Assembly: GCA_002315325.1 (NCBI GenBank)
Contig: DCGU01000054.1
Coordinates: 24,078 to 88,077 of the forward strand
Reading direction: 5' to 3'
Source of the DNA: Clostridiales bacterium UBA1770
Lineage (GTDB): Bacteria > Bacillota > Clostridia > Oscillospirales > CAG-272
Length of the DNA: 64,000 nt
Below are positions 17,421-64,000 of this stretch, in pieces. Each line of letters starts with the position of its first letter. The first letter of the stretch is position 1. The notes below the pieces were generated by a model that worked only from the letters and a program-made list of their open reading frames with translations, had not been told where the DNA came from and did no database searches. Both the position numbers and the translations under genes were made by a program.

Positions 17421-17777
17421 TTAATTCGTTAAATTACTTTTTGACGTGTTAATGGAAGAGACGAGCATGACTCTGATGCTTGCGCAGGCAAAATCAAGTG
17501 ATTTATACTCTTCCTCGGAAATATAATTCGTTTTATGTAATAATTCAAGCCAATAACCTGTTTCGTTTGCTTCTTTCAAGGCAATTTGAAGCTTTGCAAC
17601 AAAATCTGCTTTTCCGTGGGCATATTGTGCTTCACGGATGTTCGCACCGATGGAGGTACCGCTTCTGCCGATTTGATTGGAGATGACCGATTCGTGTTTT
17701 CCTTTCAAGTATTTTACCAAATTGATAATGGAAACCGCAAAATCCATAGATTGAACAGATAGCTGATCATTACGCAT
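17421..17777 (-). CDS. Four-helix-bundle protein (23S rRNA intervening-sequence protein / Avd-like family, PF05635-type)
   Basis: QIGRSGTSIGANIREAQ...AKLQIALKEANETGYWLELL is the family signature. ATG 17777 follows AAGGTGAG. The gene is visibly AT-rich relative to its neighbours. Confidence 0.85.
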   Translation of the reverse strand: MRNDQLSVQSMDFAVSIINLVKYLKGKHESVISNQIGRSGTSIGANIREAQYAHGKADFVAKLQIALKEANETGYWLELLHKTNYISEEEYKSLDFACASIRVMLVSSINTSKSNLTN

Positions 17778-17802
17778 ACTATGCTCACCTTCTTTCATCT
17801 TA

Positions 17803-17831
17803 ATCATAGCAAAATATAACGCTATTGTCAA
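17803..17831 (-). promoter_or_regulatory. sigma-70-type promoter for the four-helix-bundle gene
   Basis: Minus strand reads TTGACA, 17 nt, TATGAT. The -35 overlaps the outermost CTTCATT repeat. Confidence 0.5.
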
Positions 17832-18075
17832 TGAAGACACTCGCTTCGCTCGTTATTCTTTCATTAGCCTATGAAAACAATATTCGAAAGTAATTGCTTC
17901 ATTAATGAAGACACTCGCTTCGCTCGTTAATGAAGACGGTGCTGCGCACCTAATGAAGACGTGCTGCGCACTAATGAAGCGAAGTCGCCCTCGTTTCTCC
18001 CGTTCTCCCATTATCATTAGCGAAGCGTCTTCATTTCTTCATTCCTTCATTAGCCCGTAAGGGCGACTTCATTCA
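17829..18075 (-). repeat. tRNA-linked cluster of AATGAAG/CTTCATT heptamers alternating with GC mini-hairpins (cluster 1)
   Basis: 5 forward and about 6 reverse heptamers. Mini-hairpins include GGTGC-TGC-GCACC, GTGC-TGC-GCAC and GCCC-GTAA-GGGC. Exact 26-bp direct repeat at 17830-17855 and 17904-17929. Confidence 0.8.
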
Positions 18076-18116: not shown

Positions 18117-18201
18117 TGGTGCGGGAGAGGGGACTTGAACCCCTATGGTGTTACCCACATGCACCTCAAACATGCGCGTCTGCCGGTTCCGCCACTCCCG
18201 C
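18117..18201 (-). tRNA. tRNA-Leu (anticodon GAG), CCA encoded
   Basis: Manual fold: acceptor GCGGGAG/CTCCCGC, anticodon arm CATGT-TTGAGGT-GCATG, long variable arm, T-loop GGTTCAAGTCC. Confidence 0.9.
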
Positions 18202-41354: not shown

Positions 41355-43181
41355 TTATTCCACCGTCACGCTTTTGGCCAAATTTCGCGGTTTATCCACG
41401 TCGCACCCGCGCTGCACCGCAAGGCAATAGGCATAATACTGCAAAATAATGACCGCCAAAATCGGCAGCGTCATTTCGTTCGCCGCCGGCAATCGAATCA
41501 CCTCGTCGGCACAGTCCGCGGGAATCTCCATTCCCTGCCCGCACAAAAGAATCACGCGGGCACCGCGTGCCTTGACTTCCTTGGCATTGGACAGGGTCTT
41601 TTCCAAAAGTGCCGCCGACGTGGCAACGACGATACAGGGCACCCCGGGCGTAATCAGCGAAATCGTGCCGTGTTTGAGTTCCCCGGCAGCGTACGCTTCA
41701 CTGTGTACGTAAGAAATTTCCTTGATTTTTAACGCCCCCTCACAGCAAACGGCATAATCCTGTCCGCGGCCGATGAGAAACGCATCGGGAAGATTGCCGT
41801 GCTTTTCGGCAACCGCGGCCGCGCTGTCAAACAGGGCAAACGTTTTTTGCACGTCATCGGGCAGCGTTTCAAGCGCCCGGCAGAGTTCCTGCTCCCGTTG
41901 CGGGGACAACTGTCCGTTTTCATGCGCCAGGCGCAGCGCCAACAGCAGCAGCACGGCAACCTGCGCCGAATATGCCTTGGTGGTAGCCACGGCAATTTCG
42001 GGACCGGAATAGAGATAAATCACGTGATCCGCCTGTCTGGCAATGGACGAGCCAACCACGTTGACAACGGCATACGTCGGCACGCCTTTGGCCTTTGCCA
42101 GCCGCAGTGCCGCCAACGAATCGGCGGTTTCCCCCGATTGCGAAAGGATAAAAACGGCATCCCCCTGTGTAAAAATGGGATTGCCGTACCGGAATTCACT
42201 GGCAATCGCAACCGACACGGGAATGCGTGCCAACCCTTCGATGGCGTGTTTGCCCAAAAGCCCCGCATGCATGGCGCTGCCGCAGGCGACCAACGTCACG
42301 TGCTTGATCTTTTGCAGAGCGTCATTCGGTATTTCCCGCGACAAAATCTCACGAATACCGCCGGCAATACGCCCGCCGACGGCGCGACGGAGCGCTGCGG
42401 GCTGCTCCATAATCTCTTTTAACATAAAATGCGGATAACCGCCTTTTTCGGCACTTTCCTCGTCCCAATCGGCAACAATCACCTGTTTTTGCGCCGTAAT
42501 ATTCTTCCCGGTATCATCGTAAACCGTCACGCTGTCCCGCGTCACGCAGGCAATTTCGCCTGCTTCCGGCAGCAAATACCGCCGCGTGTGTGACAGGATG
42601 GCGGGGATATCGGAGGCAACAAGGTTTTCGCCCGTTCCCAAGCCCAAAATCAGCGGGCTGTCCCGCCGCACAGTCCATATTTCCCCCGGACGATCGGCAA
42701 ACAACACCGCCAGGGCATAGGAACCCTTTATCCGCTGCATGGCTGCCGTCAATGCGGCACGTGCGTCGCCCGTATACGCCTCATCCAGAACGTGCGCCGC
42801 AACCTCGGTATCGGTCTGCGACAAAAACGTACGTCCCTGTGCGAGCAGTTTTTCCTTCAGTTTTGCATAGTTTTCAATAATCCCGTTGTGCACCAGCGTC
42901 ACACGACCGCAGGCGTGCGGGTGTGCGTTCGCGTCAGACGGCTCGCCGTGCGTGGCCCAGCGCGTATGACCGATGCCGACGCACCCCCGTATGGGTTGCC
43001 CGCCGGCAATTTTATCCTTTAGGTTTGCCAGCCGCCCCTGCGCCTTTTCAACGCGTATTCCCTGCGCGGTTACAACGGCAATCCCGGCCGAATCGTACCC
43101 GCGATACTCCAATTTAGACAGTCCTTCCAATAAAATATCCGACGCTTCCTGTGCGCCGGTGTATCCAATGATTCCGCACAT
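41355..43181 (-). CDS. glmS: Glutamine--fructose-6-phosphate aminotransferase
   Basis: MCGIIGY N-terminus (start moved to 43181), two SIS domains and a C-terminal ...KSVTVE. Confidence 0.97.
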   Translation of the reverse strand: MCGIIGYTGAQEASDILLEGLSKLEYRGYDSAGIAVVTAQGIRVEKAQGRLANLKDKIAGGQPIRGCVGIGHTRWATHGEPSDANAHPHACGRVTLVHNGIIENYAKLKEKLLAQGRTFLSQTDTEVAAHVLDEAYTGDARAALTAAMQRIKGSYALAVLFADRPGEIWTVRRDSPLILGLGTGENLVASDIPAILSHTRRYLLPEAGEIACVTRDSVTVYDDTGKNITAQKQVIVADWDEESAEKGGYPHFMLKEIMEQPAALRRAVGGRIAGGIREILSREIPNDALQKIKHVTLVACGSAMHAGLLGKHAIEGLARIPVSVAIASEFRYGNPIFTQGDAVFILSQSGETADSLAALRLAKAKGVPTYAVVNVVGSSIARQADHVIYLYSGPEIAVATTKAYSAQVAVLLLLALRLAHENGQLSPQREQELCRALETLPDDVQKTFALFDSAAAVAEKHGNLPDAFLIGRGQDYAVCCEGALKIKEISYVHSEAYAAGELKHGTISLITPGVPCIVVATSAALLEKTLSNAKEVKARGARVILLCGQGMEIPADCADEVIRLPAANEMTLPILAVIILQYYAYCLAVQRGCDVDKPRNLAKSVTVE

Positions 43182-43279
43182 TATTTTCACCTTTGCCGTA
43201 TAAAAACGGCCCTTTGTCAAGTCAATAAAGCCTGCGGCATTTCGTCAGGGCGACGTTTGTCTGCAGACTTTTTCAATAT

Positions 43280-43426
43280 TCATCATTTCCGTTTGTGCCT
43301 TTGTTGGGCAATTACTTGCCGTTTTTCTCACAAACTCACGGTGAAATGATACCGAAGGGCACCCGCCGAATCTTTCGATAAACCCTTCCCTCGTCAACCG
43401 CGGTGAAATTACGGTCCCGGCGCTAT
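43280..43426 (-). ncRNA. glmS: glmS ribozyme (GlcN6P-responsive self-cleaving riboswitch) in the glmS leader
   Basis: Minus strand reads A/GCGCCGGGACC...GACGAGGGAAGGGUUUAUCGAAAGAUUCGGCGGGUGCCC...AUCAUUUC...GGAAAUGAU. This is collinear with the B. subtilis ribozyme core (AGCGCC, GACGAGG, UAUCGAA, UUCGGCGG, UGCC). The 3' boundary is approximate. Confidence 0.88.
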
Positions 43427-43539
43427 GCAATATCGTCCGCCTCACTTTTATTGTCCGGCAGTCCTGCATTCTTTTTTGCCGCGGCTTTCACTCCTTTCGA
43501 CCCGCGGTGAACGCAATCATTATACGAAATTTGTTCGTC

Positions 43540-52471: not shown

Positions 52472-53110
52472 ATGAAAACAATTTTATTTATGGGCGACTC
52501 CATCACCGACGTCGGCCGCAATACCAATAACGGCAGCCAGATTTCCATAGGACAGGGATATCCCCTGCTCGTTACCGGCCGCTTGGGCGTCAAATACCCC
52601 GGGCAGTTCAACTTTGTCAACACCGGTGTCAGCGGCAACCGCGTGGTCAACATTTACGCCCGCATCAAGGCGGACGTGTGGAACTATGCCCCTGACGTAC
52701 ACAGCATCCTGATCGGTGTCAACGACGTATGGCACGAGCTCAACGGCAACGGCGTGGAAAACGACCGTTATGACGCCGTATACCGCATGTATATCAGCGA
52801 CACCTTAAAGCGCTTCCCCAATATGAAGATCATTATCATGGAGCCCTTCGTGCTGCACGGCAGCGCCACCGACGAGCATTGGGATATGTTCGAGCCGGAA
52901 GTGGCCCTGCGCGCCGCAACGGCCAAAAAGATTGCCGCCGACTTTGGCCTATCCTTCCTGCCGTTGCAGAAGATGTTTGACGATGCCTGCAAGATTTGCC
53001 CGGCAAGTTACTGGCTGGCGGACGGCGTGCATCCGACGCCGGCGGGGCATCAGTTGATTGCAGATGCGTGGCTAGATCTTTTTGAGAAAGAAATTGTGAA
53101 GGGGCTGTAA
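52472..53110 (+). CDS. SGNH/GDSL hydrolase (esterase/lipase)
   Basis: FMGDSITD (block I), GVSGN, GVND and DGVHPT blocks. Start moved to ATG 52472. Confidence 0.88.
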   Translation: MKTILFMGDSITDVGRNTNNGSQISIGQGYPLLVTGRLGVKYPGQFNFVNTGVSGNRVVNIYARIKADVWNYAPDVHSILIGVNDVWHELNGNGVENDRYDAVYRMYISDTLKRFPNMKIIIMEPFVLHGSATDEHWDMFEPEVALRAATAKKIAADFGLSFLPLQKMFDDACKICPASYWLADGVHPTPAGHQLIADAWLDLFEKEIVKGL

Positions 53111-53308
53111 AAAAAGCGCCGACCGGAAAAGCAGATTTATTATTTTGTTTTATTACGTGCAACGCTTGTTGTTTTCAAGATTTTTTCATCTCTTTAAGAG
53201 ATAGCGGTATAAGACTTGCTTTTCCTACCGCCGTTTCCCTCCCTCGCAGTACAGAGTACAGCTAACGGGAGGGAGAACGACGCTTCTGCATCTTTTTTTC
53301 CAAGCCCC
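53101..53308 (-). repeat. Structured inverted-repeat element, copy A (208 bp, inverted relative to B-D)
   Basis: Aligns end to end with copies B-D. One terminus (GGGGCTGTAAAAAAAG) overlaps the last 3 codons and stop of the GDSL gene. Confidence 0.85.
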
Positions 53309-53311
53309 TTC

Positions 53312-53341
53312 GGAGCTGTAAAAAAGCGCCGACCGAAAAAA
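53312..53341 (+). repeat. Solo copy of the element terminus (GGAGCTGTAAAAAAGCGCCGACCGAAAAAA)
   Basis: Near-duplicate of 53102-53131, located immediately after copy A. Confidence 0.7.
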
Positions 53342-53358: not shown

Positions 53359-53402
53359 AAAAAGGTGTTGGTAAAACGATTGTTTTACCAACACCTTTTT
53401 TG
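53359..53402 (+). terminator. Intrinsic terminator (probably the original GDSL-gene terminator, now displaced)
   Basis: AAAAAGGTGTTGGTAAAAC/GTTTTACCAACACCTTTTT stem. Confidence 0.75.
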
Positions 53403-53415
53403 CTAACGCTTTTAT

Positions 53416-53619
53416 GGTGCTAGGGAAAAAAGTGGCAGAATCGTCGATCTTCCAACGCCAGACGTACCCAAGTACGTCAAGTGGGAAATCGGCGATAGGA
53501 AAAGCGCGTCTTTGAGCGTGATTTCTTATATTTTATAATCAAGTTGAAGACGCAACAAGCATTGAACAAGATATAAATAATCTTTTGGCTTTTCCGATCT
53601 GACCTTTTTTCACAGCACC
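53416..53619 (+). repeat. Structured inverted-repeat element, copy B (204 bp, most divergent)
   Basis: Termini are GGTGCT...AGCACC. It ends 2 nt from the stop codon of the S51 peptidase gene. Confidence 0.85.
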
Positions 53620-53621
53620 TA

Positions 53622-54371
53622 TCATTTTTTCTTGGGATAAATGTACGGCCCCTTCCCGTCAGGCATATGCAGCACCAGCGGTTCCTTCTGCAGGTCGTGG
53701 AGTGCGAAGCCCTCGTTGATGGGGAGATAGTAGGCCGTGTGGGCGGGGTTACGGTGGGAGTCGATGACTTCATAGGTACCGTCGACGAAGGCAACGGCAA
53801 TGTCGTTATCGACGCCGAGGCCGTCGTATTCCTGCATCCAAACGTCCTTGGGGAAGCCGGTCCAGTCCTCGTAGTGCGGGCACATGCAGTACGGCAGGAT
53901 ATCCAGGCCGCGCAGCAGGCAATACTGGCCGTTGTCGTAGGTGTTATCGTAGGCATACTTGAACCAGGAGTGTGCACCGGCACTCTGTCCTGCGCAAACG
54001 ACACCGTTTTCATACGCCTGTTTCAAATACACGTCGGCGTGCGTTTTGCGCCAGGTATCCAGCAGGAACTTGGTGTCTCCGCCGCCGCCGTAAATGACAG
54101 ACGCGGAGAGAATCGTTTCACGGATCTGCTCCTCGGTCAGGTTGGGATCGGTCAGGCAGAGATAGTCCACCTGCACGAAGCCGTGGCGCTTGAAATAATC
54201 CGTAACGATCGGTTCCTTATCGCGGTCGTCGCGGCCTGCCGTCGGCAGGTACACGGCACGCATGCCGTTTGCACGGCGGGTGTCGTCCACCAAGGAAATA
54301 ATATAATTTAAGATAGGATCTTCCTCATTTTCAAAAAAGATACCGCCGCTGCCGGCCACAAATTTACCCAT
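53622..54371 (-). CDS. Peptidase S51 (dipeptidase E / cyanophycinase-like) family protein
   Basis: IYGGGGDT and AGQSAGA nucleophile region. Confidence 0.75.
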   Translation of the reverse strand: MGKFVAGSGGIFFENEEDPILNYIISLVDDTRRANGMRAVYLPTAGRDDRDKEPIVTDYFKRHGFVQVDYLCLTDPNLTEEQIRETILSASVIYGGGGDTKFLLDTWRKTHADVYLKQAYENGVVCAGQSAGAHSWFKYAYDNTYDNGQYCLLRGLDILPYCMCPHYEDWTGFPKDVWMQEYDGLGVDNDIAVAFVDGTYEVIDSHRNPAHTAYYLPINEGFALHDLQKEPLVLHMPDGKGPYIYPKKK

Positions 54372-54422: not shown

Positions 54423-55178
54423 TTATTTCAAAATGATTTCCGCCCGAATCGGGAAATGGTCGGAGGCGATTTGCTTAACGACCTCGTAGGAGGCGACGTC
54501 AAAATCGTCCGAAACAAAAATATAATCCAAACGCAAATAGGGATTCCATGCACAGAAGGTACAGTCGGTATTGCCCGTCACCTGTGCAGCACTCGATAGG
54601 CGCGCAAACAACGGTGCAAGAATCGCGTCGTCCGGTTGTGCATTGAAATCACCGAACAGCACCGTCGGCATTTTTTCGCGGTCCAACAGGGCGACAAGGC
54701 GGTCCATCATGCGCTCCTTTTCCTGCAGGTTGAGGCCGAAGTGCGTAGCGATAAAGCGAACGGGTTTGCCCGCCACGTCAAGTTTGACACACAGAATCAC
54801 GCGGTCCTCGTACCATTCGTTCTCGTCGGGACGACGCTCGTCCCCCACGGGAGCCGGCACCGGTATGGCCTCCGCCGACAAAATCGGATAGCGTGACAAT
54901 ACGCTGTTGCCGATATCGGAACCCCACGGGAACATGGCACCGCGTGCAAACTGATAAAACGGATAGCCGCTCCGCTCCGCCAATTTCTCCGTTTGCTGTG
55001 TCCAGCTTTCCTCTCCGATAGAGTAGACCTCGTTGAGTCCCACAACGTCGGCACGCATATCGCGAATAACGCGCGCCGTTAAGTCAATATCCACTTTCTG
55101 CTCGTTTTCACGGTCGTTTGACGTCAAATAGTCAATACAATGGCTGATATTAAAAGTGGCAACCGTCATTTTGGTCAT
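54423..55178 (-). CDS. Endonuclease/exonuclease/phosphatase (EEP) family protein
   Basis: VATFNI, GLNEV, GDFN and C-terminal ASDHFPI motifs. ATG 55178 follows GGGAGG. Confidence 0.82.
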   Translation of the reverse strand: MTKMTVATFNISHCIDYLTSNDRENEQKVDIDLTARVIRDMRADVVGLNEVYSIGEESWTQQTEKLAERSGYPFYQFARGAMFPWGSDIGNSVLSRYPILSAEAIPVPAPVGDERRPDENEWYEDRVILCVKLDVAGKPVRFIATHFGLNLQEKERMMDRLVALLDREKMPTVLFGDFNAQPDDAILAPLFARLSSAAQVTGNTDCTFCAWNPYLRLDYIFVSDDFDVASYEVVKQIASDHFPIRAEIILK

Positions 55179-55209
55179 TGGCTGCACCTCCCATCATTGA
55201 ACTTAGGAT

Positions 55210-55287: not shown

Positions 55288-55540
55288 GGGGCTAGGAAAA
55301 AAAGATGCAGAATCGCCGTTCTCCCTCCCACTAGCTGTACTGAGTACTGCGTGGGAGGCCAGCGGAAGGGACCCCCGCAATGCACGAACGTGCGTTGTGG
55401 GGATACGCAGACGGCGGTAGGAAAAGCACGTCTTTTTACGTGATTTCGTTTGCTCAATATATTTATGAGATATGCGTATAGTGTTGCACAAGATATACTA
55501 TACTATCTATGCTTTTCCGGTCGGCGCTTTAATAAGCCCC
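55288..55540 (+). repeat. Structured inverted-repeat element, copy C (253 bp; carries a 53-nt nested hairpin insertion)
   Basis: Same architecture as A, B and D, with an extra segment at 55359-55411. Confidence 0.85.
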
Positions 55541-55541
55541 A

Positions 55542-55749
55542 GGGGCTAGGAAAAAAGGAGTCAGAATCGTCGTTCTTCACCCCGTTAGCTGTACATCCGT
55601 ACTGCGAGGGGTGAAAACGGCGATAAGGAAAGCACGTCTTTTACCTTGATTTCGTTTACTGATTTTGACATATATAATTACATTAAGTGTTGACCAAGAT
55701 AAAACAAATCATTCTTTGCTTTCCTGGTCTGGCCCTTTTTTACAGCCCC
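55542..55749 (+). repeat. Structured inverted-repeat element, copy D (208 bp)
   Basis: Abuts copy C with a 1-nt gap. Its terminus CTTTTTTACAGCCCC overlaps the last 3 codons and stop of udk. Confidence 0.85.
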
Positions 55750-56360
55750 GTTATTTTATCCTTTAGTAAAGCCCACAACATCCCAAACGCCGCCTCATTC
55801 TTCCCGCCCTGCCGGATGATGATATCCGCATACTCGCGTGAGGGTGCCACGAACAGGTCGTGCATGGGTTTGACGGTGGTTTCATATTGCAATAAAATGG
55901 ACTCCAGTGAACGCTGCCGCTCTACCATATCGCGGCGAATGCGGCGAATCAGGCGGATATCGTCGTCGGTATCCACGAATACCTTAACGTCCATATGGTC
56001 CCGCAGCCGCTCGTCGGCCAAAATCAAAATACCGTCGATAAGGATAACGGGCTTGGGCTCAATCCGCACGAATTTGTCGGAGCGGTTGTGTATTGTAAAA
56101 TCGTATACCGGGCAATCCACGGCCTCGCCCCGCTGCAGCGCCTCCAAATGCGTCAAAAGCAGTTCGGTTTCGTAAGCGTCGGGATGGTCATAATTGACCT
56201 TGGCGCGCTCGTCGTAGGTTTTACCTACCTGGTGTCGGTAATAATTGTCGTGATAAATCAGGGCAACGTCGTTGCCGAATGCGGCAACGAGACGGTCGGT
56301 CAGCGTTGATTTGCCGCTGCCGGTACCGCCGGCGACGCCGATAATCAGGGGTTTCTTCAT
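55740..56360 (-). CDS. udk: Uridine kinase
   Basis: P-loop GVAGGTGSGKST and a DHPDAYE region. Confidence 0.92.
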   Translation of the reverse strand: MKKPLIIGVAGGTGSGKSTLTDRLVAAFGNDVALIYHDNYYRHQVGKTYDERAKVNYDHPDAYETELLLTHLEALQRGEAVDCPVYDFTIHNRSDKFVRIEPKPVILIDGILILADERLRDHMDVKVFVDTDDDIRLIRRIRRDMVERQRSLESILLQYETTVKPMHDLFVAPSREYADIIIRQGGKNEAAFGMLWALLKDKITGL

Positions 56361-56418
56361 GGCAGAGTCTCTCCGATTCTTCCCTATATTTTGAATGCAA
56401 TCACGCGGCAGGCAGGAT

Positions 56419-57714
56419 TCAGAAAATCAACTGCGGTGCAGGAACGGGCCCATCCGACCACGTCAGGGCAGACGTGAAGCGTTTTGCTGCATCGGCAAAC
56501 AGGGCCTCATTTGATGCGTACAGCGTGGCAATCGGTTCGCCTGCCTGTACGGCGTCACCCGTTTTGCGCTGCAAAACGATACCGGCCGCGTAGTCAACGT
56601 CGTCTTCCTTCTTCATGCGTCCCGCGCCGAGCATAACGGAGGCAATCCCGACGGCCTCGGCGTCCATATGGGCGATATACCCGGAGCACGGTGCCGTCAC
56701 AACGTACGACAAAGGCGCCTGCGGCAATTTGGACAAATCCTCGATGGCGGATACGTCACCGCCCTGGGCGGCAATCCACTCTTTCATTTTGCCGTATGCG
56801 GTGCCGTTTGTAATGGTTTCCCGCACCAGTCCGTCGGCCTGTTCCACCGAGATGCCCTGCACCATGGCGACCATATTGGCAGCCAAAACGACGCATACCT
56901 CATATAAGTCACCCTGTTTTTCGCCGCGCAAAATACGCACGGCCTCATCAACTTCCAGGGCGTTGCCGATATTGTTGCCGAGCGGCACGTCCATATTGGT
57001 CACAATGGCGCGCACGTCACGGCCGGCAAGACGGCCGATAGACGTCATTTCGTCAGCCAGAGCCTTGGCGTCCTGCGGCGTTTTCATAAAGGCACCGCTG
57101 CCGCACTTGACGTCCAGCACAATAGAGTGGGCGCCGGCCGCCATCTTTTTACTCATAATACTGGAGGCAATCAACGGCAGACAATCCACGGTTGCCGTAA
57201 CGTCACGCAGGGCGTACAGTTTTTTGTCGGCAGGTGCCAGTTCGGCGGAGTGGCCCACGACACTCATCCCCACGCGGCGCACGACGTCCAAAAACGCCTG
57301 TTCCGACATATCGGTTCTGAACCCGGGAATGGCGCGGAGTTTGTCGATGGTCCCGCCGGTGTGGCCCAGTCCCTCACCGGACATTTTGGCCAGTTTACCG
57401 CCGAGTGCGGCAACGATGGGGGAAATAATCAGCGTCGTTTTATCGCCGACACCGCCCGTGGAATGTTTGTCCACGGAAAGGCGGCCAAATTCAGACAGGT
57501 CAATGACGTCACCGGAACGCATCATGGCATCGGTCAAATCCGCGGTTTCCTCATGGTTCATACCGCGGCAGCAAATAGCCATACACAGGGCGGATGCCTG
57601 GTAGTCCGGAATATCCCCGTGCGTGTACCCATTTACGAAGTAGGCAATTTCCTCTTTTGACAATGCCTGCCCCATTTTCTTTTTTTGAATGACGTCATAC
57701 ATTCTGTACTGCAT
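56419..57714 (-). CDS. pdp: Pyrimidine-nucleoside phosphorylase
   Basis: HSTGGVGDKT and GLGHTGGTIDKL motifs. Start moved to ATG 57714 after GGAGG. Confidence 0.92.
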   Translation of the reverse strand: MQYRMYDVIQKKKMGQALSKEEIAYFVNGYTHGDIPDYQASALCMAICCRGMNHEETADLTDAMMRSGDVIDLSEFGRLSVDKHSTGGVGDKTTLIISPIVAALGGKLAKMSGEGLGHTGGTIDKLRAIPGFRTDMSEQAFLDVVRRVGMSVVGHSAELAPADKKLYALRDVTATVDCLPLIASSIMSKKMAAGAHSIVLDVKCGSGAFMKTPQDAKALADEMTSIGRLAGRDVRAIVTNMDVPLGNNIGNALEVDEAVRILRGEKQGDLYEVCVVLAANMVAMVQGISVEQADGLVRETITNGTAYGKMKEWIAAQGGDVSAIEDLSKLPQAPLSYVVTAPCSGYIAHMDAEAVGIASVMLGAGRMKKEDDVDYAAGIVLQRKTGDAVQAGEPIATLYASNEALFADAAKRFTSALTWSDGPVPAPQLIF

Positions 57715-57799
57715 ACAGAAAACCTCCGTTATAAGTATCGGCAGGGACCGCACACGTCACGTGTCCGCTCCCTGCCCTATTTTATGTAATAATTTCGTC

Positions 57800-58960
57800 T
57801 TATTTGAGCAAACGGTAAAAACTGCGGCCGACCGTTTCAAACGGCACGTCCAGCATTTCGGCCACCGTGGCGCCGATATCGGCGAAGCAGGGCCGCGTTC
57901 CCAGGTTCGTCGGCTTGATTTTTTTGCCGAACACCATCAGGGGCACGTATTCACGGGTGTGGTCGGTGGAAACGTCACCTGGGTCGCAACCGTGATCGGC
58001 CGTCACCATAAAGACGTCGTCCTCCTGCATGCCTGCCAAAAAGGTCGGCAGCCAGGTATCAAACTCGGCAATGGCCTTTGCATAGCCGTCCACGTCGTTG
58101 CGGTGCCCGTACAGCATATCCGTGTCCACGAGATTGATAAAGCACAACCCGCGGAAGTCCTTTTTCTGCACCTGCAGCGACGTTTGCATACCCTCGGTAT
58201 TGCCGTGGGTAAACAAGGTCTCGGTAATGCCGCGGCCGGCGAAAATATCCGAAATTTTACCGACGGCAATCACGTCTTGTCCTGCCGCCTTGACGGCGTC
58301 CAGCACGGTCGTGCCGGTCGGTTCCAGGGAGAAATCGTGGCGGTTGGCCGTACGGGTAAAATTGCCGGGGGTACCGACAAACGGGCGTGCAATCACACGG
58401 CCGACGGCATATTTTCCCGTCAGGATTTTGCGTGCCATGCGGCAGTATTCGTAGAGTTGTTCGGGCGGCACGAGATCCTCGTGCGCGGCAATTTGGAACA
58501 CGCTGTCGGCACTGGTATAGACAATTAAATTACCGGTTTTGAGGTGTTCTTCCCCGTAATCGGCAATGACCTGCGTGCCGGAATAGGGTTTATTGCACAG
58601 CACGCCGCGACCGGTTGCCGCGCTGAACGCATCCAGCACTTCTTTGGGGAACCCGTCCGGGAAGGTCGGCAACGGCGAGGGAGAGACGATACCGGAAATC
58701 TCCCAGTGTCCGATGGTCGTATCCTTGCCCATGGATTTCTCCCGCAAGCGGGCAACGGCGGCCGTCGGCGTCAGCGTAATGGCGGGACAGGTCACACCAT
58801 CAATATTGCCGAAGCCTGCTTCTTTCATATTTCGCATATCGAAATAGGGGGACCTTGTGATGGAACGGAGCGTATTGGCACCAACGTCGCCGAATGCGGC
58901 GGCATCGGGCTCTTCTCCGATACCGAAACTGTCAAGTACCAATAAAAATACGCGTTTCAT
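57800..58960 (-). CDS. deoB: Phosphopentomutase
   Basis: MKRVFLLVLDSFGIG N-terminus and TADHGCDP motif. Confidence 0.95.
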   Translation of the reverse strand: MKRVFLLVLDSFGIGEEPDAAAFGDVGANTLRSITRSPYFDMRNMKEAGFGNIDGVTCPAITLTPTAAVARLREKSMGKDTTIGHWEISGIVSPSPLPTFPDGFPKEVLDAFSAATGRGVLCNKPYSGTQVIADYGEEHLKTGNLIVYTSADSVFQIAAHEDLVPPEQLYEYCRMARKILTGKYAVGRVIARPFVGTPGNFTRTANRHDFSLEPTGTTVLDAVKAAGQDVIAVGKISDIFAGRGITETLFTHGNTEGMQTSLQVQKKDFRGLCFINLVDTDMLYGHRNDVDGYAKAIAEFDTWLPTFLAGMQEDDVFMVTADHGCDPGDVSTDHTREYVPLMVFGKKIKPTNLGTRPCFADIGATVAEMLDVPFETVGRSFYRLLK

Positions 58961-58962
58961 CG

Positions 58963-59715
58963 TTATTTACCTTCTTTATCCAATTTGACTGCCGTATTCA
59001 ACGCCAATTCCATCATATCGGTGAAGGAATTCTGACGTTCCTCTGCCGTGGTGGCCTCGCCCGTGAGCAGATGGTCCGAAATGGTAAAGACACCGAGCGC
59101 GCGCTTGCCGGCACGCGCCGCGTTCATATAGAGAGCGGCGCTCTCCATCTCGACGCACAGCACGCCCATTTTAGCCCACTGCGGCGTTCCCTTCAGGGCA
59201 TCGGGCAAACCCGCCTCGTCCCCGTAAAACGTGTCACTGGACAATACGTTGCCCACGTGGTAGTGCAGATTCATCTCTTTGGCGGTTTCCACGCAGGTGG
59301 ACAGAATCGTAAAGTCGGAAATGGGGGCAAAGGTGCCCGGCAAATGATATTGGTTGACAAAATTGGAATTGGTGCAGGCCCCCTGCCCGATGACGATATC
59401 ACGCACGTGGACCTTTTCCACCATACCGCCGGCGGAGCCGACGCGGATGATATTGTCCACACCGAAGAAGTTATATAACTCGTAGGAGTAGATACCGATG
59501 GAAGGCATACCCATACCGCTGGCCATGACCGAAACGCGCGTGCCGTGATAGGTACCGGTGTACCCCTGTACACCGCGCACGTTATTCACGAGCTTGGCAT
59601 CCGTCAAAAAGTTTTCGGCAATGAATTTGGAACGTAGCGGGTCACCCGGCATCAGCACGGTTTTGGCAAAATCCGCGGGGGAAGCATTTATGTGGGGGGT
59701 AGGATAATTACTCAT
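58963..59715 (-). CDS. deoD: Purine-nucleoside phosphorylase, DeoD type
   Basis: TPHI, LMPGDPLR, GMGMPS and VEMESAALY motifs. Confidence 0.93.
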   Translation of the reverse strand: MSNYPTPHINASPADFAKTVLMPGDPLRSKFIAENFLTDAKLVNNVRGVQGYTGTYHGTRVSVMASGMGMPSIGIYSYELYNFFGVDNIIRVGSAGGMVEKVHVRDIVIGQGACTNSNFVNQYHLPGTFAPISDFTILSTCVETAKEMNLHYHVGNVLSSDTFYGDEAGLPDALKGTPQWAKMGVLCVEMESAALYMNAARAGKRALGVFTISDHLLTGEATTAEERQNSFTDMMELALNTAVKLDKEGK

Positions 59716-59764
59716 AATTTAACTTCCTTTCTTTAACCTTTGAAAAATGCTCAATCCGTTTTGT

Positions 59765-59817
59765 GCGGTCTGTGCATTTTTCATGCGGCTTGTTTTATTA
59801 AAAAATGCACAGACCGC
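59765..59817 (-). other. Perfect 17-bp-stem hairpin between deoC and deoD
   Basis: GCGGTCTGTGCATTTTT, a 19-nt loop, then AAAAATGCACAGACCGC. No U-run follows on the transcribed strand. Confidence 0.7.
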
Positions 59818-59829
59818 GCAAAAATGTCA

Positions 59830-60498
59830 TCAATATCCCGACTGTTCGGGCATATTTTTGACGATTTTGACGATGCGGCTGGTGCCCAGGCGCGAAGCGC
59901 CGAGGGAGACGAACTTTTCCGCATCCTCCAGGGAGGAGATGCCGCCCGCTGCTTTGATTTTAACGTGCGGGGCGACGTGTGCGGCAAACAGGGCCACGTC
60001 GTCAAACGTTGCGCCGGCCTTGGAAAAACCGGTGGAGGTTTTGATGAAATCGGCGCCGGAGGCAGAGACGATTTCACACATTTTGATTTTTTCCTCGTCG
60101 GTGAGCAGGCACGTCTCGATAATCACCTTGAGCACGTGCGTGCCGCAGGCGGCCTTGATTGCCTTGATTTCCCCCAGCACTTCGTCATAGCGGCCGTCCT
60201 TGAGTGCACCGATATTGATCACCATATCGATTTCATCGGCACCGTTCTGGAGGGCATCCTGCGTCTCGAATACTTTGACTGCGGTGGTGGAATACCCGTT
60301 GGGGAAGCCGATGACCGTACAGATGGTCAGTTTGTCGCCGACGTAGTCCTTGGCAAATTTAACGTAGGACGCCGGGATACAAACCGACGCCGTGTGATAT
60401 TTCATGCCGTCATCGCAAATGGCGCGGATTTCCGCCTGCGTCGCCGTCTGCGACAGCAGCGTGTGGTCGCACATACCGAGAATTTTCGTTACGTCCAT
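59830..60498 (-). CDS. deoC: Deoxyribose-phosphate aldolase
   Basis: CDHTLL, LKVIIET and FIKTSTGF (Schiff-base Lys) motifs. ATG 60498 follows AGAGGGA. Confidence 0.93.
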
Positions 60499-60527
60499 TT
60501 TAAATCCCTCTTTTGACAATCACTTTC

Positions 60528-61106
60528 TCAAACCTTTTGGTCTGCAATTTGTTTGCTCCAGCACTTGTGGCACATGGCAACGTATCTGTCGTTGCCGCCC
60601 AGCATAATTTGTGCGCCGTGGGTGATGATTTTCCCGTTGGCATCCAACCGGGCGTTGACGATCGCCTTGGACCCGCAGGCGCAAATGGTCTTGATTTCGG
60701 TGATGGAATCGGCGATTTCAAGCAGGCGCTGTGAGCCGGGGAACAGTTTGGTTCTGAAATCGGTGCGCAAACCGAAGCACAACACGGGGATATTGTCCTC
60801 GTCCACGATGGTGCGCAGGGCGTCGATCTGGGCGGGGGCCATAAACTGACACTCGTCCACAATGACAACGTCGATGCCGGGATGATCCACCAGGGCCGCG
60901 CGCACGTCGAAGTCTGCGGCGACCACCTCTGCCTCGGCAGAGAGCCCTATGCGGGAACGGATGGTACTGACACCGTCACGGGAGTCCGTGGCCGGTTTGA
61001 GAAGCCAGACCTTCATGCCCCGCTCCTCGTAATTAAACTTTGTAATCAGCGCCTGTGCCGTTTTGCTGGACCCCATTGCGCCGTATTTGAAATATAACTT
61101 TGCCAT
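60528..61106 (-). CDS. tdk: Thymidine kinase
   Basis: P-loop GAMGSSKT, VIVDECQF and zinc-ribbon cysteines (CACG...CHKC). Confidence 0.92.
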   Translation of the reverse strand: MAKLYFKYGAMGSSKTAQALITKFNYEERGMKVWLLKPATDSRDGVSTIRSRIGLSAEAEVVAADFDVRAALVDHPGIDVVIVDECQFMAPAQIDALRTIVDEDNIPVLCFGLRTDFRTKLFPGSQRLLEIADSITEIKTICACGSKAIVNARLDANGKIITHGAQIMLGGNDRYVAMCHKCWSKQIADQKV

Positions 61107-61132
61107 GATTGCCTTCTCTTACTGTGAATTCG

Positions 61133-61166
61133 TTGAAAACACGGCGGCGACGCATCGCCGCCGTGT
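61133..61166 (-). terminator. Intrinsic terminator after the ABC permease genes
   Basis: ACACGGCGGCGA/TCGCCGCCGTGT stem followed by TTTTC on the minus strand. Confidence 0.65.
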
Positions 61167-61189
61167 CATTATTTTTGCGTGGAAAATCG

Positions 61190-62143
61190 TTAACGTTGAC
61201 CCTTATCGTAAGGGATACCTTCCGCCTTCGGGCAGCCGGACTTCTTGGCAGTCAGTGCCAGAACGACCAGAACGACGAAATACGGAATAATGTTGTAGAA
61301 ATACATGGGCATACCCAGGTTTTTGAAGAAATCGATGGAGGAAGAAACGGCACCGATGCACTTTAAGAATCCGAACAGGAAGGCACCGAGTGCGATACCG
61401 AGCGGCTTCCAGTTACCGAAAATCATGATGGCCAGGGCCAGGAAGCCCATACCGGCAACGGTACTTTCAGCCGTACCGCCCGCCGTTGTGGCGACGTAGA
61501 CGTAACCGCCGACGCCGGCCAAAGCACCCGAAATGGTGGTGCCGAGATACCGCATGGCAGCGACGTTGATACCGACGCTGTCTGCTGCCTGGGGATGTTC
61601 ACCGCAGGCACGCATACGCATACCGGTTTTGGTTTTATATACCCAAATCGACATAATCACGAATACGGCGATAATGACGTAGGTAGAAATATACGCCTTG
61701 TCCGTCAGAACTGCGGCGATGCCCTTGGAACCCTCGTTGATTAAAACGAAGTTCGTGGCCTTCAGGGGCACGATCTTTTCCTGGTTGAACAACAGCAGTG
61801 CCAGCGTATTGACGATGGCGGGTGCCAGCATATTCAGTGCCGTACCGCCGATGGTCTGGTCGGCCTTGAGTTTGATGGCCGAGAAGGACAAGAGCAACGA
61901 ATAGAGGGCGCCGGCTGCGGCCGCAATCAGCATAATGATGATATACATCAGCTGCGGTTTATCCGTCAGAATATCGCCCTTTTGGAACAAATACACAACG
62001 ATGCCGCCGATAAAGGCACCGAAAATCATTTCACCTTCCAGGGCCAGGTTGATGATACCGCTGCGTTCGGCAAACATACCGGCGAGCGCCACAATCAAAA
62101 GCGGGATTGAATAAATCAGCGTTTTTTGCAGAATGAACGTCAT
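61190..62143 (-). CDS. ABC transporter permease (BMP/nucleoside-type, NupQ-like)
   Basis: BPD_transp_2-type polytopic protein. Overlaps the upstream permease stop by 4 nt. Confidence 0.82.
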   Translation of the reverse strand: MTFILQKTLIYSIPLLIVALAGMFAERSGIINLALEGEMIFGAFIGGIVVYLFQKGDILTDKPQLMYIIIMLIAAAAGALYSLLLSFSAIKLKADQTIGGTALNMLAPAIVNTLALLLFNQEKIVPLKATNFVLINEGSKGIAAVLTDKAYISTYVIIAVFVIMSIWVYKTKTGMRMRACGEHPQAADSVGINVAAMRYLGTTISGALAGVGGYVYVATTAGGTAESTVAGMGFLALAIMIFGNWKPLGIALGAFLFGFLKCIGAVSSSIDFFKNLGMPMYFYNIIPYFVVLVVLALTAKKSGCPKAEGIPYDKGQR

Positions 62144-63435
62144 GCCTGTTTACCTCCTTCCGCATTTTCGGCATCGGGTTTGGCCGCTTCGTCGTCTTTT
62201 ACCGGTTCTGCCGAGGCGGGAGCAACCGCAGGGGCGGCAGGTTTATCGGGGTTCTTTTCCGGCACGGCGTTTTTCAATTTACGTTTGATGATATCGCGAA
62301 TCAGTTTGGAGAAACCGGCGAAGTAAATAATCAGAGCAATGATGATATCCGAGATATAGCGGTTAAAACCGGCGGAAACGAGGTTGTTACCGCCCTCACC
62401 CAGGTAGCGCAGGAACAGACCCGAGAAGATAACGCCGACGGGATTGTTGGAGGCCAACAGGGCGGCGGGAATGCCGTTGAAACCGTAATCGGGGAGTTTG
62501 GAATAGGCGGACGAGAATTTGAACTCGATACCGGGGTTCAAATAGTACAAGGCACCTGCCAGGGCGGCGAGACCACCTGCAATAGCCATGGACAGGATAA
62601 TATTACGTTTTTCGTTCATACCGGCGTACTTGGAGGCGTTGCGGTTGTAACCGCAGGCCTTGAGTTCGTAGCCGAACGTCGTTTTGTTCATCATGATATA
62701 CATAGCGACGGCCACAAGTACTGCGATGAAAATACCGATATCCAAATAGGAACCGCCGAACAGTTTGCCCAGTCCCAGGGTCGGCGTACCGTTGCCGGTT
62801 TGCGCCGTCGTAATGAGATACCCGGATTTACCGTGCCCGTTGTTAATCAGAGATTCCTTACCGTTAAAGAACCAGCTGACCAGATTGGCGGCAATCCAGT
62901 TGGTCATAATGCAGACGATAACCTCGTTGACGCCGAACAGGGCCTTGAACATGCCGGGGATAGCGCCCCACAGCATACCGAGGGCAATACCGACAAGAAT
63001 CGCCAACAGCCAAACCAAAAGGCCCTTAAAACCGCCCTCGGTTTTGAACGTCAGTGCCACGTACAAGGAGCCTGCCGTACCCATAAGGTACTGGCCGGGG
63101 GCACCGATATTAAACAGACCCGTTTTGAAGGCGATGGCCACCGACAAACCGGTCAAAATCAGGGGGACGGCGTAGAAGATCATATTGCCGAGATTGGCAA
63201 TCACGTATTTGAAAATACCGCTGGAGAACGGGCCGGCCAGCAAAATGCCGATGCCCTGAAAAGCCTGACCGATGGAAATCGTGTCGGACGTTGCAGCAAT
63301 CACCAGCATCACGATAAAGCCGATGACAATACCGCCCAAAATACAAATCAAGGAAGACAGGACGGACTGCACGCTGTCTTTGCGCAGGAAATCGACAAAA
63401 CCGTTGTTGCCTGTATTATTCTGTTCACGCTTCAT
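62140..63435 (-). CDS. ABC transporter permease (BMP/nucleoside-type, NupP-like) with a ~50-aa P/A/E/K-rich C-terminal tail
   Basis: Polytopic permease. Start moved to ATG 63435 (MKREQNN), which overlaps the ATPase 3' end. Confidence 0.8.
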   Translation of the reverse strand: MKREQNNTGNNGFVDFLRKDSVQSVLSSLICILGGIVIGFIVMLVIAATSDTISIGQAFQGIGILLAGPFSSGIFKYVIANLGNMIFYAVPLILTGLSVAIAFKTGLFNIGAPGQYLMGTAGSLYVALTFKTEGGFKGLLVWLLAILVGIALGMLWGAIPGMFKALFGVNEVIVCIMTNWIAANLVSWFFNGKESLINNGHGKSGYLITTAQTGNGTPTLGLGKLFGGSYLDIGIFIAVLVAVAMYIMMNKTTFGYELKACGYNRNASKYAGMNEKRNIILSMAIAGGLAALAGALYYLNPGIEFKFSSAYSKLPDYGFNGIPAALLASNNPVGVIFSGLFLRYLGEGGNNLVSAGFNRYISDIIIALIIYFAGFSKLIRDIIKRKLKNAVPEKNPDKPAAPAVAPASAEPVKDDEAAKPDAENAEGGKQA

Positions 63436-64000
63436 GTGCGGTTCCCTCCTCTCCTTCGTTTTGGCGTTTGGCGCCGGCCATATACAGACCGAGCGTTTGC
63501 ACGTCGACTTCTTTGGGATTGAATTCGCCGACGATTTCACCGCCGTGCATCACCAGGATGCGGTCGGACAGGTTCATAACCTCGTCGAGTTCCAGGGAAA
63601 CGAGCAGGATGGCCTTACCGGCATCGCGCTCTTTGACAATTTCACGGTGAATAAATTCGATGGCGCCGACGTCAAGGCCGCGCGTGGGCTGGACGGCGAT
63701 GAGCAAATCGTGTGCACGGCACATTTCGCGGGCCACGATGGCCTTTTGCTGGTTACCGCCGGACATGGAACGCGATATCGTAATCGGTCCCTGGCCGCTG
63801 CGCACGTCAAACTTTTCAATCAGCTCGGTTGCATACTCGCGTACTTTGTCAAAACGGATAAAGCCGTTCTTTTGGAACTGCGGCTCGAAATACTGCTGCA
63901 GGACGATATTGTTTTCCAGGCTGTAATCCAGCACCAAACCGTGCTTATGACGGTCCTCCGGGATGTGGCTCATACCGGACAGGCTGCGCCGACGGATGGA
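63425..64000 (-). CDS. ABC transporter ATP-binding protein (C-terminal NBD of a two-NBD sugar/nucleoside ATPase); continues past the right edge
   Basis: HIPEDRHKHGL, signature SGGNQQK and Walker B LLIAVQPTRGLD. The frame stays open to position 64000. Confidence 0.88.
   Translation of the reverse strand, partial: SIRRRSLSGMSHIPEDRHKHGLVLDYSLENNIVLQQYFEPQFQKNGFIRFDKVREYATELIEKFDVRSGQGPITISRSMSGGNQQKAIVAREMCRAHDLLIAVQPTRGLDVGAIEFIHREIVKERDAGKAILLVSLELDEVMNLSDRILVMHGGEIVGEFNPKEVDVQTLGLYMAGAKRQNEGEEGTAHEA

Follow-up and report, generated by a model that had tools for sequence, protein, structure and literature searches.

A palindromic repeat at gene 3' ends whose terminus provides the last codons and the stop of two genes in an uncultured gut bacterium

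Genes and repeat copies at the locus

The window, i.e., the whole stretch of DNA analysed (64 kb), contains four full copies of a repeat (A to D) and one solo end (A'), all inside 2.7 kb (Table 1). They cluster around the genes for an S51 peptidase and an endonuclease/exonuclease/phosphatase-family (EEP) protein, which form a unit bounded by copies C/D and B. A promoter-like site was found upstream of the EEP gene (55238-55210). Two motifs internal to the repeat occur exactly four times each in the 64 kb, and an nhmmer profile search with the filters switched off gave no further copies in the rest of the window or in the 8.1 kb past its right edge. The copies of the element are 199-253 nt long and no conserved small ORF was found inside them. 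The gene-side end of copy C is degenerate (GGGGCTTATTAAAG), and this copy carries an extra GC-rich hairpin of 49 nt at 55358-55406, which is inserted in a conserved arm. Copies D and C are the sole strong structures between the udk stop codon and the promoter-like site of the next unit.

The remainder of the window has an ordinary chromosomal content, with genes for RNase Y, MutS/L and IleRS, glmS with its ribozyme, and nucleoside salvage genes. Upstream of glmS (41355-43220, minus strand) sits its ribozyme (43281-43435, minus strand; Rfam, 86.7 bits), which is ordinary and places the host among the Firmicutes-type lineages using it. The gene udk is the last of a nucleoside uptake and salvage cluster, which was read from 55740-63540 of the window and from contig L032. 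The order in this cluster is Bmp lipoprotein, ABC ATPase, two permeases, thymidine kinase, DeoC, purine/uridine phosphorylase, phosphopentomutase, pyrimidine-nucleoside phosphorylase and udk. A gene of the 23S rRNA intervening-sequence protein family (17421-17840, minus strand) adjoins a tRNA gene (18120-18201, minus strand).

Table 1. Positions of the repeat copies, their parts and the adjacent genes. Window positions are given without prefix; an L number denotes a contig outside the window.
Feature	Position	Strand	Junction in gene frame	Remarks
GDSL-family hydrolase gene	52472..53110	+		Pfam Lipase_GDSL_2; last 10 nt (53101-53110) within copy A
Copy A (GDSL)	53101..53308	+ (direction of GDSL)	AAG GGG CTG TAA	nhmmer 167.7 bits; reads GGGGCTGTAAAAAAAG...CTTTTTTTCCAAGCCCC
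Solo gene-side terminus A'	53312..53340	+		29 nt, GGAGCTGTAAAAAAGCGCCGACCGAAAAA; 3 nt past copy A
Bidirectional terminator hairpin	53359..53400	.		perfect 19 bp, A and T runs either side
Copy B (S51)	53416..53619	-	TGA TAG GTG CTG TGA	nhmmer 162.8 bits; gene-side end GGTGCTGTGAAAAAAG starts 2 nt past S51 stop
Peptidase S51 gene	53622..54371	-		Pfam Peptidase_S51; TGA stop 53622-53624
EEP gene	54423..55187	-		Pfam Exo_endo_phos
Copy C	55288..55540	-		nhmmer 152.6 bits; tandem behind D
Copy D (udk)	55542..55749	-	ACG GGG CTG TAA	reads GGGGCTGTAAAAAAGG...CCTTTTTTCCTAGCCCC
Copy D, outer helix	55542-55547 with 55744-55749			+ coordinates
Copy D, A-run/GC clamp helix	55551-55565 with 55728-55741			+ coordinates
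Copy D, arm 1	55566-55624			+ coordinates; invariant GTAC..GTAC apical hairpin
Copy D, arm 2	55626-55725			+ coordinates; variable, AT-rich
udk, uridine kinase gene	55740..56360	-		Pfam PRK; last 10 nt within copy D
Ca. Apopatosoma intestinale copy (rnfB)	L014:3178-3390		AGA TAG GGG CTG TAA	213 nt, at rnfB
Ca. Apopatosoma intestinale copy (lipoprotein gene)	L008:1849-2047		GAC TAA AAT GGA CTG TAA (L008b)	plus truncated tandem copy
Horse-faeces MAG copy (SipL-like gene)	L013:3163-3379		AAA TAA AAG GGG ATG TTA
Horse-faeces MAG partial copy	L010

A previous sequence-only reading of this DNA had reported that udk and the GDSL hydrolase gene, which are unrelated, both close in GGG CTG TAA and that a third copy ends 2 nt past the S51 stop. 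Both statements were confirmed by direct reading. The GDSL gene ends in GTG AAG GGG CTG TAA (AAG to TAA, 53099-53110; stop codon 53108-53110) and udk in ATA ACG GGG CTG TAA (ACG to TAA, 55740-55751; stop codon 55740-55742), where the plus strand of 55740-55749 reads TTACAGCCCC. Bases 1-10 of copy A finish the GDSL Lys codon and then encode Gly, Leu and stop; similarly, bases 1-10 of copy D (55740-55749) finish the udk Thr codon and encode the same Gly, Leu and stop. The edge of copy B (53619) is separated by a gap of 2 nt from the S51 stop TGA (53622-53624).

The ten shared bases, GGGGCTGTAA, form one strand of the outer helix of an element of about 208 nt. Because every copy pairs its GGGGCT with an AGCCCC at a distance of about 200 nt, with compensatory changes, these bases are part of the repeat and not a chance likeness. 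Thus, the earlier proposal that the common Gly-Leu-stop is encoded by the element holds. The terminus GGGGCTGTAAAAAA has two exact occurrences and four with at most two mismatches, against 0.51 expected, and none of 100 shuffles gave four.

Proteins ending in GL were absent among 119 udk homologues and rare among the GDSL homologues (3/150). The databases contained no close relative of the window organism: the nearest homologues are 63% (udk) and 56% (GDSL) identical, and the contigs from its own species match the window at 100%. As judged from the homologues, Gly-Leu does not appear to be the ancestral ending of either protein. Both proteins are of typical length and their tails lie outside the Pfam domains; the length of the C-terminal tail varies among the homologues of each.

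The hairpin at 53359-53400 is common to the convergent GDSL and S51 genes. It is pre-existing and lies outside the repeat, and copies A and B each sit between a stop codon and this hairpin. An insertion aimed at terminators, which had also been considered, is not borne out, the hairpin being intact in both convergent-gene cases with the element between stop and hairpin. The solo terminus A' is a remnant of an older copy. With copy A precisely removed, the GDSL gene would end in frame at the TAA of A' (GTG AAT TCG GAG CTG TAA).

Fold, strand preference and reading-frame register

The predicted fold of each copy is much stronger than that of shuffled controls (z = -4.8 to -7.8), and the seven full copies from three genomes share one Y-shaped consensus. 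Its outer helix, GGGGCT/AGCCCC, is followed by a conserved 2x3 internal loop, which is an unpaired spacer with GT opposite CCT. Next comes an A6-7/T6-7 helix, which runs into a GC clamp, and then a tight three-way junction. Arm 1 is conserved and capped by an invariant GTAC-N3-4-GTAC hairpin; the interior of arm 2 is hypervariable. The termini thereby form an imperfect inverted repeat of about 20 nt (GGGGCT-nn-A6-7-G... / ...C-T6-7-nnn-AGCCCC), and the gene-side terminus has TAA at its bases 8-10.

In the alignment, 93.4% of the cells were in standard pairs, compared to 86.5% for shuffles and 43-50% when the partners were slid. Both sides had changed in 15 of the 48 pairs, with 6.7 expected. 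The outer helix alone has three independent compensatory variants, including GGTGCT/AGCACC in copy B and GGGGAT/ATCCCC in the horse-MAG copy; hence the ten bases common to udk and GDSL belong to the fold. Core identity is 66-85% among the copies of the window genome (74-85% among A, C and D), 81% within Apopatosoma and 61-73% between genomes. That copies this old have kept their pairing indicates that their structure has been selected, beyond any effect of recent copying.

Flanks of 3 bases are complementary at copy A (53098-53100 and 53309-53311, GAA and TTC) and at the L013 and L008b copies (AAA and TTT each), where they lengthen the terminal helix; this was not seen at the other copies. Such flanks would reflect either a small AT-rich palindromic target or selection for a longer stem. 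A run of U6-7 follows the closing stem on both strands, with an enclosed structure of about 170 nt. A consensus scan found no canonical terminator at the ends of the element.

For all seven full copies, the antisense strand (relative to the adjacent gene) had the stronger predicted fold, by 3-13 kcal/mol. Folding of the alignment gave -39.4 kcal/mol for the antisense strand versus -24.9 for the sense strand, and the ratio of G·U to A·C cells on the antisense strand was 17:2, at about 8 positions versus 1. By this measure, the strand under selection appears to be the antisense one; the sense RNA, which is certain to be present as 3' sequence of an mRNA, would still fold strongly. The earlier idea that the element serves as a 3'-UTR or terminator module is weakened, since 7/7 copies fold better antisense to the mRNA. 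Replication strand, as in IS200/IS605, was ruled out as explanation of the asymmetry, because A and B are about 100 nt apart in opposite orientations, each behind its own gene.

Promoter-like sites on the plus strand are present in copy B (53512-53539, TTGAGC-16-TATAAT) and copy C (55435-55463, TTTACG-17-TATATT). They aim at the 3' end of the adjacent gene and would drive antisense transcription. In the promoter scan, they were not conserved in copies A and D, and no conserved promoter for an antisense RNA was found.

[quoted passage not shown] The tie to gene 3' ends noticed in the window is thus general among these copies. In 6/6 the first G of the element is a third codon position, which places CTG-TAA in the frame of the gene. 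Chance estimates are roughly (1/2)^5 for the polarity and roughly (1/3)^4 to (1/3)^6 for the register, for a small sample of seven full copies from three genomes. In the remaining two frames of the element, an ORF would gain about 33 to 70 residues. For this reason, selection may explain the register inside ORFs, not after intact stops. The register matches no known transposition chemistry.

Relatives and orthologous sites

A degenerate pattern scan found family members outside the window only in Ca. Apopatosoma intestinale and a horse-faeces MAG, both uncultured Clostridia. A first, exact pattern gave zero hits in genome contigs and only chance coding matches in metagenome contigs; the second pattern gave four true and four chance loci in genome contigs. 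Both scans were empty for viral contigs. BLAST of whole elements and of the terminus gave no match in plasmids and phages, and no Rfam covariance model matched the elements at gathering score or at E-values up to 10. No copy was found in about 122-130 kb of relatives' sequence, around rnfB and a lipoprotein gene, or elsewhere (~69 kb) in the ~72 kb read from the window genome. In the sequence covered, the family thus appears rare, patchy and locally clustered, which would be unlike a dispersed MITE burst. In the three tandem arrays (D-C, A-A' and L008 b-a), the gene-distal copy is always degenerate or truncated, which suggests that newer copies arrive gene-side.

The site between rnfB and apbE allowed a comparison of orthologues. 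In six related lineages the spacer is 12, 12, 32 or 44 nt long, compared to 268 nt on L014, which includes the 213-nt element. In an Apopatosoma sister strain (94.7-96.5% nucleotide identity), rnfB ends identically in ...AACAGATAGG, and 104 nt of unrelated sequence come next; the native rnfB stop TAG is unchanged in this strain without the element. The element lies inside the operon, with a G microhomology of 1-2 nt at the junction, and carries no ORF. It follows from this comparison, which involves two different fillings and no clean empty site, that the element is a lineage-specific gain directly after an intact native stop. The origin by insertion proposed before is thereby shown at one orthologous site.

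The L008 lipoprotein ends in MIAFD*, its orthologues in MIAFDQ* or MIAFE*. Remodelling of C-termini had been put forward as a possible effect; as rnfB keeps its native TAG and the L008 lipoprotein ends like its orthologues, it is the exception. To judge from these sites, the element would usually land just past an intact stop.

Two observations were made during these searches. A metagenomic RnfB homologue (P0122, 404 aa) has an internal duplication of about 140 residues, which is probably an assembly artefact. At L017:7727-7834 and L019:6520-6600, two unrelated genes of different organisms end in TAG followed directly by GATCGG and hairpin-rich sequence. The terminator hairpin on L019, CCAGACCGGAAAAGCG-GTTT-CGCCTTTCCGGTCT, has 15 nt in common with the junction region of the element. 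The presence of TAGGATCGG past these two unrelated stops was considered as a second stop-adjacent element, and a wider motif search suggests coincidence.

Known systems, rival explanations and meaning

No consistent direct repeat, i.e., target-site duplication, was found in the flanks of the seven copies. A Pfam search of all 53 window ORFs with a length of 100 aa or more gave no transposase, integrase, reverse transcriptase or Y1 transposase. A full-length parent element was not found. Within the ~72 kb read, a single recombinase gene was found, which encodes a serine recombinase (L032:1366-2358) and lies about 6-7 kb past the right edge of the window.

Among MITEs, the Correia/NEMIS elements of Neisseria and the enterobacterial ERIC elements overlap gene 3' ends. 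The QMITE1 and QMITE2 elements of Coxiella burnetii reach 1-50 bp into the 3' ends of functional genes, and one strain has a QMITE that supplies a C-terminal tail and stop, extending enhC (PMC5896051). Like these MITEs, the element is small and non-coding, has inverted repeats at its ends and is predicted to fold very stably; it lies at or over the last 1-50 bp of functional genes, can give C-terminal residues and stop, and shows presence/absence between strains (here between rnfB and apbE). Unlike MITEs, it has no target-site duplication and no known parent insertion sequence, is very low in copy number and locally clustered in the sequence covered, has a three-way junction with internal covariation and a one-strand folding preference, and keeps a fixed polarity and frame register relative to the gene.

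REP sequences and REPINs are compensated palindromic repeats at gene ends (PMC3116915). The likeness to these RAYT/TnpA-REP mobilised repeats (PMC3116915) lies in extragenic palindromes whose hairpins are held by compensatory change, in common doublets or tandems, in long persistence in lineages, in a frequent position just past stop codons and in an implied single-strand folding. However, REPINs are doublets of REPs of ~20-40 nt with tens to hundreds of copies, a GTAG-type motif and a RAYT gene. None of the four was found here: the element is a three-way junction and not a REP doublet, it has no GTAG-type motif, its copy number in the sequence covered is low, and no Y1 transposase is encoded in the window.

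With bidirectional intrinsic terminators, the element shares A6-7, a GC-rich stem and T6-7 on both strands directly downstream of genes. In contrast to these, its 'loop' is a branched structure of ~170 nt and the GGGGCT/AGCCCC helix lies outside the A/T runs. Ordinary terminators coexist beside copies A and B and the L013 copy. A retron msr-msd RNA, which has a similar antisense topology, was rejected, because a convergent host gene lies downstream and the window has no reverse transcriptase.

We give about an even chance to the best explanation, in which the repeat is palindromic and non-autonomous, akin to MITEs and REPINs, was gained at stop codons, and through its terminal TAA came to provide the working stop of two genes. 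The element would be gained at, or duplicated beside, AT-rich bases at or after stop codons, with the same end gene-ward. [quoted passage not shown] For udk and GDSL, the original stop would have been removed by the insertion or lost later, and a change of the GDSL junction codon from TAG to AAG is one possible route to stop loss. Translation would then enter the element for two or three codons and halt at TAA, leaving the -Gly-Leu tails. New copies would land gene-side of older ones and so form the three arrays. Transcribed within the mRNA 3' end, the element would fold there (about -65 to -86 kcal/mol) and would probably act as a 3' barrier or terminator as a side effect. As the sequence seems optimised for the opposite strand to fold, propagation may involve an intermediate of single-stranded DNA or of antisense RNA.

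Several findings fit a different origin, in which the repeat is not mobile and is a structured RNA under selection, either an antisense small RNA gene or a cis-acting 3'-end element. The overlap with stop codons would then come from convergent placement, with the RNA 3' end abutting the gene 3' end. Covariation in all helices, the better antisense folding throughout and the G·U excess of 17:2 would be expected of such an RNA, and tandem paralogues are known among bacterial small RNAs. In addition, the antisense variable arm of the Apopatosoma and horse copies closes in a hairpin of variable sequence with a T-rich run, and a GC clamp is followed by T6-7 at the 3' end; both are terminator-like. 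We nevertheless consider this origin unlikely, because the antisense 5' end is not preceded by a conserved promoter, the promoter-like sites of B and C are missing in A and D, two copies lie directly behind the terminator of another gene, and the outermost helix covaries even though it lies beyond the T-run and would be outside a terminated RNA. The strain-level presence/absence within the rnfB-apbE operon and the lack of an Rfam match even at an E-value of 10 point in the same direction. Far less probable is an attC-type recombination site, with a folded bottom strand and a recombinase which shuffles adjacent genes, the S51/EEP pair being one unit. Like integron attC, the element is an imperfect palindrome at the ORF 3' end which often includes the stop codon, its conserved termini are set apart by the unpaired GT/CCT spacer, its centre is variable in length and its preferred folding strand is antisense to the gene; B and C/D also bracket a two-gene unit in direct orientation. 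On defining features, however, an identity with attC was rejected. The element ends, GGGGCTGTAAAAAA and TTTTTTCCTAGCCCC, contain none of the RYYYAAC/GTTRRRY core sites (R''/R'), the element is larger (200-250 nt with a three-way junction) than the simple attC hairpins of 57-141 nt, and the window holds neither integrase nor cassette array, the only recombinase found being the serine recombinase past its right edge. Furthermore, the adjacent genes are core housekeeping genes and the insertion in the rnfB-apbE operon carries no ORF as cargo.

Coincidence or target-site similarity, i.e., that GGGGCTGTAA belongs to the genes and the repeat begins past the stop, is effectively refuted. Just ten bases are common to element and coding sequence, and the variable tail length of the udk and GDSL homologues would make these tails unremarkable. 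Against this, the outermost six bases are paired to the opposite end of their own copy in 7/7 copies, with compensatory changes, the same terminus is present in copies past intact stops, the four matches exceed the 0.51 expected, and not one udk homologue of the 119 ends in GL. A further reading takes the polarity and register at face value. The element would then represent a new class of DNA, mobile or recombining, which integrates in register with the stop codon, at a fixed phase and polarity on the ORF 3' boundary. We regard this as improbable, if less so than an attC-type site. If true, the element would spread via a folded single strand antisense to the gene, by a chemistry resembling that of attC or HUH transposons with its own site and enzyme, and could be appended to any gene without disruption, as an in-frame stop would always be left or supplied.

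The principle is known, in that MITE overlaps with gene 3' ends, including supplied C-terminal residues and stops, are documented. New here is the family itself, with its branched covarying fold, strand-biased pairing, and constant polarity and codon phase. It is undescribed (no Rfam, plasmid, phage or viral match) and joins features which are normally found apart. The locus is a clear case of core metabolic genes, here of an uncultured gut bacterium, whose final codons and stop are set by a repeat; this bears on the annotation of gene ends and on the evolution of C-termini. Should phase and polarity fail genome-wide, the family would count as another MITE-like one that affects its neighbours in the usual ways. 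If they hold genome-wide, this would imply a currently unknown targeting of ORF 3' boundaries.
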